Origin: Escherichia phage moha
Sequence record: MN850590.1
Length of the DNA: 64,000 nucleotides
Direction: 5' to 3' (one strand)
Part shown: positions 12,725-14,873 of the stretch, one piece after another
Layout: each line of letters opens with the position of its first letter
Position numbering within the stretch: the first letter of the stretch is position 1
The notes under the pieces: model-generated
What the model saw: only the letters and a program-made list of their open reading frames with translations
Told to the model about the DNA's origin: nothing
Database searches by the model: none
Translations under genes and position numbers: made by a program

Positions 12725-13213
12725 ATGAATATATTTGAAATGCTTCGTAATGACGAAGGTCTTAGACTGACTTTATACAAAGACACTGAAGGCTTTTGGA
12801 CGATTGGCATTGGCCATTTAGTAACAAAGAATCCGTCTTTAGCCGTAGCTAAAGCTGAACTTGACAGAATGATCGGGCGTAAATGCAACGGTACAATTAC
12901 CCTTGATGAGGCTGAAAAGCTATTTAATGAAGACGTCGATAAAGCCGTTCGCGGAATCTTGGGTAATGCTAAACTTAAACCGGTATATGATTCTTTAGAT
13001 GCGGTTCGTCGATGTGCATTGGTCAATATGGTCTTCCAAATGGGTGTAGCAGGCGTCGCTGGTTTTACTAATTCTCTTCGTATGCTTCAACAGAAACGTT
13101 GGGATGAAGCGGCAGTAAATCTAGCCCAATCTAAATGGTATCGTCAGACACCTAATCGCGCGAAACGCGTAATCTCAACATTTAAAACAGGAACTTGGAA
13201 AGCGTATATATGA
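12725..13213 (+). CDS. e: lysozyme (endolysin) e
   Basis: 162 aa; MNIFEMLR...DEGLRL...TIGIGHL matches T4 lysozyme incl. catalytic Glu11/Asp20 region. Confidence 0.95.
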
Positions 13214-13491
13214 AAACATATAGTGAATTTTTATCAGAATCTATTCTTAACGAAGCTACTGACACATTTGCAACTAAGCTAGGTGCAGCTTTGGTTGAAG
13301 CCGAAAGTCTATTAGCACGTATTTCTGAACTTGCTAGTAAGATAGATACTCGCAAATTTGAACGTACCAGCGATATCGCTAAGCTTGAAGCCTTGTTACG
13401 TATGTGCGATAAACCGGACGAAATCGCTAAGAATGGCTCGCTAATGAAACAACGTCTTGAAAAATATATTTCAGGCGCTTCAGAAAAATAG
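13210..13491 (+). CDS. capsid-targeting-sequence protein (candidate internal protein)
   Basis: 93 aa; [11 protein letters not shown] leader; ATGA overlap with e stop. Confidence 0.7.
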
Positions 13492-13492
13492 T

Positions 13493-13522
13493 GTTTACTT
13501 CCTCCAAGGACTTTGATACTAT
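13493..13522 (+). promoter_or_regulatory. early promoter with SD-sequestering inverted repeat
   Basis: -35 GTTTAC, -10 TACTAT; IR CCTCCAAG (13501) / CTTGGAGG (13537) spans -10 and SD of denV. Confidence 0.55.
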
Positions 13523-13549
13523 ACATTCATCAACTACTTGGAGGAAATT

Positions 13550-13963
13550 ATGACCCGTATCAATTTAACACTTGTTTCTGAACTGACCGACCAACATCTT
13601 ATGGCTGAGTATCGTGAATTACCACGCGTATTTGGTGCAGTCCGTAAACATGTTCAAAACGGTAAACGTGTAAAGGATTTTAAAATCTCTCCAACATTTA
13701 TCTTAGGCACAGGTCACGTAACATTCTTTTACGACAAACTCGAATTTTTACGTTTACGTCAAATCGAGCTAATCGCTGAATGCTTGAAACGTGGTTTCAA
13801 AATCAAGGACACGACTGTCCAGGATATTTCCGACATTCCTGTAGAATTTCGTAATAATTATGTCCCGTCCGAAGCGTCCATTGCGATAAGTCAAGCACGC
13901 TTAGATGAAAAAATTGCTCAACGTCCGACTTGGTACAAATACTATGGTAAATCAATTTACTAA
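13550..13963 (+). CDS. denV: endonuclease V (pyrimidine dimer DNA glycosylase) DenV
   Basis: 137 aa; [34 protein letters not shown] matches T4 endo V. Confidence 0.95.
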
Positions 13964-13969
13964 GGAAAA

Positions 13970-14230
13970 ATGAAAATGTATCAAGAATTTATCATTGAAG
14001 CAGATGCCAAAGGTCCTAAATTTAAAGTTAAAGCTTTCATTGGTGATGCGGAAGACTTTGGCTCATTAAAACGTAATGGGTATTTTTTCTTAGGTGGCGA
14101 TGGTAAAGAAATCAACACCTATGCAAAACGTAGTGAAATTGCTTATGTTGTAGCAAGTCCTAAAGTAGATGTTGACGATATTGGATACGATTTTAACAAC
14201 TTCGGAATTATTTCTGGCGGTAAAGCTTAA
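13970..14230 (+). CDS. ipII: internal protein II-like (CTS leader)
   Basis: 86 aa; leader MKMYQEFIIEA. Confidence 0.7.
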   Translation: MKMYQEFIIEADAKGPKFKVKAFIGDAEDFGSLKRNGYFFLGGDGKEINTYAKRSEIAYVVASPKVDVDDIGYDFNNFGIISGGKA

Positions 14231-14233
14231 ATT

Positions 14234-14263
14234 GTTTACGCTTAAGTATTAATATGGTATAAT
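14234..14263 (+). promoter_or_regulatory. early promoter
   Basis: -35 GTTTAC / 18 bp / -10 TATAAT. Confidence 0.5.
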
Positions 14264-14294
14264 TACTCTATCAAAACAAACAAGGAAACAAAAA

Positions 14295-14873
14295 ATGAAA
14301 ACATATAAAGAATTTATCGCCGAGGCCTTTGCAGGAAAAGCTCAAGGCATTAATAAGGACGAGTGGAATTATCGTGGCGGAAACGGCTTTGACCCTAAAA
14401 CTGCTCCACTTGAACGATATCTAGCCACAAAGGCTTCTGATTTTAAAGCCTTCGCTTGGGAAGGACTTCGCTGGCGTAACGATTTAAATATTGAAGTTGA
14501 CGGACTTAAATTTGCTCATATTGAAGATGTTGTTGCTAGTAACTTAGACGCAGCTTTTGTTAAAGCCGACAGTGACCTTCGTCGCTGGAATTTAAAACTG
14601 TTCTCTAAACAAAAAGGCCCGAAGTTTGTGCCTAAAGCAGGTAAATGGGTTATTGATAATAAATTAGCTAAGGCTGTCAACTACGCCGGTCTTGAATTTG
14701 CCAAGCATAAATCATCATGGAAAGGTCTTGATGCAATGGCTTTCCGTAAAGAATTTGCCGATGTTATGGCTAAAGGCGGCTTTAAGGCAGAAATAGATAC
14801 CTCTAAAGGTACGTTTAAGGACGCTAATGTTCAGTATGCTTACGCCGTTGCTAATGCGGCCCGTGGTAATTAA
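14295..14873 (+). CDS. ipIII: internal protein III-like (CTS leader)
   Basis: 192 aa; leader MKTYKEFIAEA. Confidence 0.8.
   Translation: MKTYKEFIAEAFAGKAQGINKDEWNYRGGNGFDPKTAPLERYLATKASDFKAFAWEGLRWRNDLNIEVDGLKFAHIEDVVASNLDAAFVKADSDLRRWNLKLFSKQKGPKFVPKAGKWVIDNKLAKAVNYAGLEFAKHKSSWKGLDAMAFRKEFADVMAKGGFKAEIDTSKGTFKDANVQYAYAVANAARGN

Follow-up and report, generated by a model that had tools for sequence, protein, structure and literature searches.

Three internal-protein genes of catalogued families in the e-to-vs.8 locus of an RB69-like T-even phage: a reduced cassette set with a likely role against type IV restriction

Three genes that lie between an endolysin gene and a vs.8-like gene, and that open with a common N-terminal leader, raise the questions of what the proteins behind this shared start are, whether any of them is new, and what they might do for the phage that carries them. 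The stretch of DNA analysed here, 64 kb in length and referred to below as the window, is from a Mosigvirus, an RB69-like T-even phage, as judged from the 96-98% identity of the region to many genomes of this genus, among them G2285, p000v, vB_EQ1, PhAPEC2 and phiC120. For the window, identity to p000v, vB_EQ1 and PhAPEC2 is about 96-97%, and none of the records compared matches it identically. On the plus strand, a nudE-like gene is followed by e, which encodes an endolysin of the T4 lysozyme family (12725..13213; Pfam Phage_lysozyme, 7.5e-14), a 93-aa ORF (13210..13491; IP93), denV, which encodes the pyrimidine-dimer DNA glycosylase endonuclease V (13550..13963; Pfam Pyr_excise, 3.3e-14; PHROG 1183, 2.4e-62), an 86-aa ORF (13970..14230; IP86) and a 192-aa ORF (14295..14873; ipIII). 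A GC-rich hairpin and a T-rich sequence, together terminator-like, close the array (14876..14893, no strand assigned), and a non-coding spacer of 158 nt (14894..15051, plus strand) separates it from the vs.8-like gene, which starts at 15052 on the plus strand and forms the right border. An Rfam search of 12500-15300 gave no match. By its position between e and the vs.8-like gene, the array falls into the class of polymorphic ip loci (57B-tRNA or e-to-vs.8). The T4 order is e, ipIII, ipII, denV, vs.8, whereas here denV lies within the array and ipIII comes last. The product of denV is not an internal protein, even though its gene sits among the ip genes. A first-pass annotation had described three consecutive genes around denV; they do surround it, but they are not consecutive, as denV separates the first from the second. 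The head genes for the gp21 protease and the gp22 scaffolding core lie outside the window; both are core genes of T4-related phages (PMC9026906).

The three ORFs, starting at 13210, 13970 and 14295 on the plus strand, all begin with the internal-protein leader (consensus MKTYxEFIxE), just as the first-pass annotation had it; the leader reads MKMYQEFIIE(A) in IP86 and MKTYKEFIAE(A) in ipIII. The motif occurs far above chance: when the window is translated in all six frames, the strict pattern MK.Y.EF[LIV].E matches 4 times, where residue frequencies predict about 1e-4 matches, and every one of the 4 is the start of an ORF on the plus strand. The genetics of T4 IPIII tied capsid targeting to Tyr4 and Phe7, and processing to Leu/Ile8 and Glu10 (PMC9026906). 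Its first 10 residues suffice for targeting to the prohead core, the leader is stripped by the gp21 protease, and the mature T4 internal proteins, each present in about 360 copies, are injected along with the DNA (PMC9026906, PMC3012670). Tyr4, Phe7, Leu/Ile8 and Glu10 are all retained in IP93, IP86 and ipIII, and, at the level of the motif, a gp21-type [L/I]-x-E site is found at residues 8-10 of each, as L-S-E, I-I-E and I-A-E, respectively. These residues support the assignment of all three as internal-protein genes, in which a putative capsid-targeting leader is followed by a predicted prohead-protease site, and the earlier proposal that the leader combines a packaging signal with a processing site is upheld to that extent. 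All three products also match PHROG families labelled as internal head or virion proteins; Pfam has no family for any of them, and none of the three gave a meaningful match in a sequence search of the PDB.

The 192-aa protein is, from its full-length alignment, the ortholog of T4 IPIII: 176/192 residues are identical (92%; 16 substitutions; E = 4e-133), and it matches PHROG 5341 at 3.8e-117. It shares with T4 IPIII the type of 10-residue leader, the cleavage motif and the e-to-vs.8 region, and differs in its place within that region, the T4 gene directly following e and the gene in the window standing after denV as the last of the array. Cleavage after E10 is predicted to leave a mature protein of 182 aa with a pI of 9.6. 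T4 IPIII (Ip3) is an inhibitor of GmrS1/GmrSD2, the two-gene type IV restriction system found in E. coli ECOR17 (PMC12373910), and growth of T4 on this strain requires IPIII. The expectation that this locus would hold both ipII and ipIII is borne out for ipIII but fails for ipII. T4 IPII (Ip2), an inhibitor of GmrSD/BrxU of ECOR21, is likewise a small leader-bearing protein of the same locus, but IP93 and IP86 were both rejected as its orthologs, as BLASTP aligns each of them with it over residues 1-11 only and there is no likeness beyond residue 11; PHROG 7857 (IPII) is also absent from the PHROG matches of both. A true ipII ortholog occurs in the Mosigviruses phi25-307, RPN187, AV114 and FL31 and is absent from the window.

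The protein encoded directly after e had been flagged as possibly novel, a suggestion that does not survive comparison with known families: IP93 is, on the strength of its matches, a member of the Ip5 family. It matches PHROG 3499 ("internal head protein") over residues 1-87 at 3.4e-46 and is 51% identical over 84 residues to ip5 of phage PP01, a gene found also in T2, AR1 and RB9. At a threshold of at least 80% identity it is present in 238 phage records, covering essentially every Mosigvirus, and it is 97-99% identical in about 230 genomes; its homologues, RB69p127 and p000v gp244 among them, carry the RefSeq label "internal head protein". An exhaustive HMMER search with IP93 against 1.84 billion representative proteins recovered five clusters at 50% identity, four of them real, whose members are all small and begin with MKT[YF]x[ED]F; the fifth, P0021, was discarded as spurious, being a protein of 756 aa with low-complexity repeats. 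Ip5 of T2, PP01, AR1 and Bas37 (bas37_0261) is similar in size to IP93, both start with MKT[YF]xEF, and both match PHROG 3499 at about 1e-46 or better. Two differences stand out. Firstly, ip5 of the Tequatroviruses resides in the 57B-tRNA (ipI) locus, whereas the IP93 gene comes directly after e and its start overlaps the e stop codon (ATGA); hence, one family occupies both ip loci. Secondly, in T2-type Ip5 the L8/E10 site is missing and I-T-E at residues 13-15 is the sole site, whereas IP93 has both the first site and a second candidate, L-N-E, at residues 13-15. Given this contrast, cleavage of IP93 may fall after E10 or after E15, and the predicted mature protein would have 78-83 aa and a pI of 6.3-8.1. 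The AF2 model of IP93 is all-helical, with three helices, and of modest to low confidence (pLDDT 72.6, pTM 0.35); a fold search with this low-confidence model against the PDB gave no matches.

IP86, in turn, matches PHROG 2667, also "internal head protein", at 4.9e-20. It is present in 216 records from Mosigvirus, VR20/SP18-type coliphages and Salmonella phages of the STP4-a type, and its RB69 counterpart, RB69p125, carries the same RefSeq label. It has a single protease site, after E10, from which a mature protein of 76 aa and pI 6.4 is predicted. AF2 produced a small alpha/beta domain, the best model having a pLDDT of 84 and the other four falling below 50; word-indexed homolog searches had yielded near-identical proteins only, so that the alignments behind the structure predictions are shallow. 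Against the PDB the best fold match had E = 0.8 and generic alpha/beta sandwiches alone were returned, T4 IPI* not being among them, and against BFVD the model matched only its own family and a protein of a Morganella T4-like phage. A relationship to the McrBC inhibitor Bas37_0260 was considered and rejected, since the alignment is confined to the leader. In several relatives the IP86 homologue is truncated, frameshifted or internally deleted (P0009, P0013, P0014 and P0015), which suggests that the gene is dispensable in some hosts; the homologue in JS09 is 43% identical.

The Shine-Dalgarno sequence of e (GGGAGG) is paired in a predicted RNA hairpin (12697..12724, plus strand; -16.3 kcal/mol, z = -3.5), and just upstream of its 5' arm are two late-promoter-like boxes, TATAAGTA (12686) and AATAAATA (12693), each one mismatch away from TATAAATA; hairpin and boxes together presumably resemble the arrangement at the T4 e gene. 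With its start overlapping the e stop, the ribosome-binding site of e locked in the hairpin and these boxes upstream, IP93 is probably made late, along with the endolysin; we infer this timing rather than read it off directly, because the exact T4 late-promoter box TATAAATA is missing near these genes, where one-mismatch variants alone are found. A second predicted hairpin pairs the Shine-Dalgarno sequence of denV (UUCCUCCAAG with CUUGGAGGAA; 13499..13546, plus strand; -17.8 kcal/mol, z = -2.4), and a GTTTAC hexamer (13493-13498) abuts the 5' side of its stem, with a matching -10-like element in the loop. IP86 starts 6 nt after denV. Ahead of ipIII lies a predicted promoter of the sigma-70 type, T4 early-like (14235..14263, plus strand), in which TTTACG and TATAAT are spaced by 17 nt, with 10/12 matches and a TG ahead of the -10 hexamer.

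Two further leader-bearing ORFs in the window had been passed over by the first-pass annotation. One, on the plus strand at 2323..2610 in the classical 57B-tRNA locus, is an ipI ortholog with a 19-residue leader, MKTYKEFISPVANVSTLTE (PHROG 4363, 6e-48). The other (5019..5483, plus strand), downstream of tRNA genes, encodes 154 aa beginning with MKSYAEFLTE; it matches PHROG 2280 ("unknown function") and is called "hypothetical protein" in all matches listed, out of 511 matching records, so that by its leader it is a candidate internal protein which no database labels as such. The cassette set of this phage accordingly comprises ipI, the 154-aa candidate, the Ip5-like gene, the PHROG 2667 gene and ipIII, and it is without ipII, Ip10 and a 109-aa cassette seen in relatives.

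Comparison with these relatives also bears on the earlier idea of an extra member, since by gene content the window has a reduced or minimal cassette set relative to its kin and not an enlarged one. Up to six leader-bearing cassettes lie between e and vs.8 in related genomes; phi25-307 has all six (IP93, IP86, a 104-aa gene, ipIII, the true ipII ortholog and the 109-aa gene), and p000v, S143_2, RPN187, AV114, phiC120 and FL31 have varying subsets. With 96% identity to ip10 of PP01, the 104-aa gene is identified as Ip10. RB69 is devoid of ipIII and carries a C-terminally truncated Ip10 together with a 109-aa gene that has Ala at position 10. Between p000v, in which Ip10 is present, and the window, in which it is absent, there is a 340-bp difference with its junctions inside a repeated sequence made up of the RBS, the ATG and the leader-coding segment, and the promoter and 5' leader module that precedes Ip10 in p000v is the one that precedes ipIII in the window. 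Leader codons vary synonymously with the key leader residues held constant. At the position of the spacer (14894-15051) relatives carry ipII and/or the 109-aa leader-bearing gene, and bases 14990-15029 of the spacer agree in 38/40 positions with the leader preceding the 109-aa gene of phi25-307. The spacer does not read as the scar left by a simple deletion in a phi25-307-like array, since the order of segments is at odds with a single deletion; the region looks mosaic, and from these comparisons we regard the leader modules as exchangeable. According to Repoila et al. 1994, as later papers credit them, T-even phages reportedly shuffle many Ip genes that have only the leader in common, and the cassette polymorphism seen here fits that view.

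What, then, might these proteins do? From the sequence features, family assignments and locus polymorphism observed here, we infer packaging, cleavage, injection and targets by analogy with T4. The precursors would be made during infection, and the N-terminal capsid-targeting sequence of about 10 residues would bind the scaffolding core, so that the protein is built into the prohead. The gp21 prohead protease would then cut after Glu10 of [L/I]-x-E, or possibly after Glu15 in IP93, and the mature protein would remain with the packaged DNA and enter the host with it, able to act ahead of any phage gene expression. Its most likely job would be a stoichiometric block of the modification-dependent (type IV) restriction enzymes that attack DNA with arabinosylated cytosine; like T4 Ip3, IPIII would probably block the GmrS1/GmrSD2 type encoded by two genes, and IP93 and IP86 would block other enzyme variants. 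We consider it likely, chiefly by analogy, that the e-to-vs.8 ip locus of Mosigvirus encodes three packaged and injected proteins of this sort, with type IV restriction inhibition as their likeliest task, and the anti-restriction role proposed in the first-pass annotation remains the leading hypothesis for the class.

The precedents for this reading are specific. T4 Ip1, Ip2 and Ip3 each inhibit one particular GmrSD-type enzyme, without cross-protection (PMC12373910). For a fourth protein with this leader, Bas37_0260, the inhibited enzyme is McrBC (preprint 10.1101/2025.11.20.689424). In each of these four cases, the only ones with a known target, the leader-bearing protein inhibits type IV restriction, be it by a GmrSD variant or by McrBC. 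Bas37 is phage KarlGJung (MZ501089), and its ipI locus pairs bas37_0260 with the Ip5 homologue bas37_0261. The DNA of Mosigvirus contains arabosylated 5-hydroxycytosine and is cut by BrxU, an enzyme of the GmrSD family (PMC13390438). With these targets known, and with BrxU cutting Mosigvirus DNA, the guess with the best support for IP93 and IP86, too, is that they inhibit type IV restriction. T4 IPI*, the inhibitor of GmrSD CT596, and Bas37_0260 are small leader-bearing injected proteins (about 76-77 aa when mature) and provide the functional model for both, though neither resembles IP86 or IP93 in sequence beyond the leader. Against an inhibitor role, the pI values predicted for mature IP93 and IP86 are close to neutral, whereas those of IPI* (9.0) and IPIII are basic. 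Their models gave no fold match to any characterised inhibitor (in the PDB and, for IP86, also in BFVD), and ip4-ip10, which by the numbering include ip5, showed no reproducible inhibition on a GmrSD panel (PMC12373910, supplementary figure 9). A literature search for virion proteomics or N-terminal mapping of the 93-aa and 86-aa proteins, of Mosigvirus internal proteins or under the RB69 locus tags found none. A bolder version, which we think possible but rather doubtful, is that IP93, IP86 or both inhibit a defence system new to internal proteins, and that the 154-aa ORF marks a third ip locus; an enzyme specifically recognising arabinosyl-5-hydroxycytosine DNA would be an example of such a target, with IP93 being nearly universal in Mosigvirus.

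An alternative that we consider unlikely is that the small proteins, though packaged, have a part in head assembly or DNA packing, through core filling, charge balance or assembly kinetics, rather than in anti-defence. In T4, mutation of IPIII roughly halves the rate of head assembly and lowers the burst to about 40% of normal, and internal proteins, of which a head contains about 360 copies, bind DNA when salt is low (PMC9026906); their lysines contact DNA phosphates (PMC3012670), and the failure of ip4-10 to yield a defence target is also in keeping with a structural role. However, the near-neutral predicted pI of mature IP93 and IP86 would make them poor counter-ions, variation of the cassette set between phages and the frequent breakage of IP86 are expected of accessory host-range genes and not of structural parts, and the leader-bearing proteins whose target is known are restriction inhibitors in 4/4 cases. 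Less probable still, and very unlikely, is decay or loss of function of one or both small ORFs, in which the leader would be kept only as a recombination joint for moving cassettes: the Ip10 indel junctions in repeated leader-coding sequence, the broken IP86 homologues, the divergent one of JS09 and the truncated Ip10 and Ala10 of RB69 would agree with it, but both genes are full length in the window, IP93 retains its near-identity within Mosigvirus and its 51% identity across genera with conservative substitutions, and the leader codons change synonymously around fixed key residues, so that conservation of IP93 and of the leader points to selection on the protein.

Restriction inhibition by packaged and injected proteins stays the preferred reading of the locus, which is a known kind of element. 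All three families are already catalogued in hundreds of phage genomes, and each of the two small genes is found in more than 200 database genomes, RB69 included, under the RefSeq name of internal head proteins; the window adds no new kind of element but lists the cassettes that this phage carries and those that it is missing. IP93 and IP86 are reasonable candidates for the ongoing screens that match inhibitors with targets, an incremental use rather than a discovery. Internal proteins of this class, being injected, face host immunity ahead of all other phage molecules, and their part in setting host range where type IV restriction enzymes are present matters when T-even phages are chosen for therapy.

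Five leader-bearing genes in total, with products that begin with the N-terminal capsid-targeting sequence of the T4-type internal proteins (ip), were recovered in the 64-kb window. One of these is an ipI ortholog on the plus strand of the 57B-tRNA locus (2323-2610), with an extended 19-residue leader, MKTYKEFISPVANVSTLTE, followed by ATL... A 903-aa plus-strand ORF (46667 onward), beginning MKEFYLTVEQIGDSIFERYIDSNGRERTRE, surfaced as a loose motif match only; judging by its sequence, it is probably the DNA polymerase (gp43) of the RB69 type, a reading that fits the assignment of the phage to the Mosigviruses.

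A further ORF of 154 aa (5019-5483, plus strand) displays a complete capsid-targeting leader, MKSYAEFLTE, followed by QSSS..., and lies downstream of the tRNA genes, in neither of the classical ip loci. It matches PHROG 2280, a family of 'unknown function', and all of its homologues among the matches listed, out of 511 matching records, are labeled 'hypothetical protein'. Around 400 Tequatroviruses encode a counterpart with ~73% identity; T4 does not. RB69 has a different leader-bearing ORF, ORF149c (MKTYAEFLTEA...), at the equivalent position. The region past the tRNA genes may represent a third polymorphic ip locus.

Variation is also seen in IP86, the 86-aa leader-bearing protein encoded after denV (13970-14230), whose gene is frameshifted, truncated or internally deleted in several other genomes (homologues P0009, P0013, P0014 and P0015). 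The copy in the window contains a run of seven T residues (14084-14090) near the point where two of the variants diverge. In many records the start of this gene is placed two codons late (MYQEF...), and its leader has been hidden as a result. In RB69 (locus L012), ipIII is absent, and of its ip genes at L012 3450-3779 and 3848-4120, Ip10 is a C-terminally truncated copy. The leader of the RB69 109-aa ip gene, MKTYQEFIAAV, has Ala rather than Glu at position 10; by analogy with the T4 rules, in which positions 4 and 7 serve targeting and positions 8 and 10 cleavage by gp21 (PMC9026906), this protein would be targeted to the head yet remain unprocessed.

Two plus-strand hairpins cover ribosome-binding sites in this neighborhood. 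The first (12697-12724, 12 bp, z = -3.5) occludes that of e, with late-promoter-like boxes just upstream of its 5' arm, a layout that resembles the one at T4 e. The second (13499-13546) is a 10-bp perfect stem of UUCCUCCAAG paired with CUUGGAGGAA, which sequesters the Shine-Dalgarno sequence of denV (-17.8 kcal/mol, z = -2.4); an early-promoter-like GTTTAC lies directly 5' of the stem and a matching -10-like element inside the loop. Therefore, denV would go unread on transcripts running through from e and IP93 (the 93-aa ip gene after e), and would be translated from those initiated in the loop.

The non-coding plus-strand spacer at 14894-15051, with no match in Rfam, is a mosaic: 14953-14991 is identical (39/39) to phi25-307 sequence upstream of vs.8, while 14990-15029 is closer (38/40) to the leader upstream of the phi25-307 109-aa ip gene. 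In a two-locus comparison, the Ip10 cassette was present in p000v (L001 4530-4960) and missing from the window (14231-14330), with the junctions falling inside a repeat of roughly 28 bp, ACAAAA-ATG-AAAAC-N-TATAAAGAATTTAT, which comprises the ribosome-binding site and leader codons. The Mosigvirus and Tequatrovirus PP01 versions of Ip10 share 96% identity, and this sequence similarity suggests that the gene has been swapped between the two genera.
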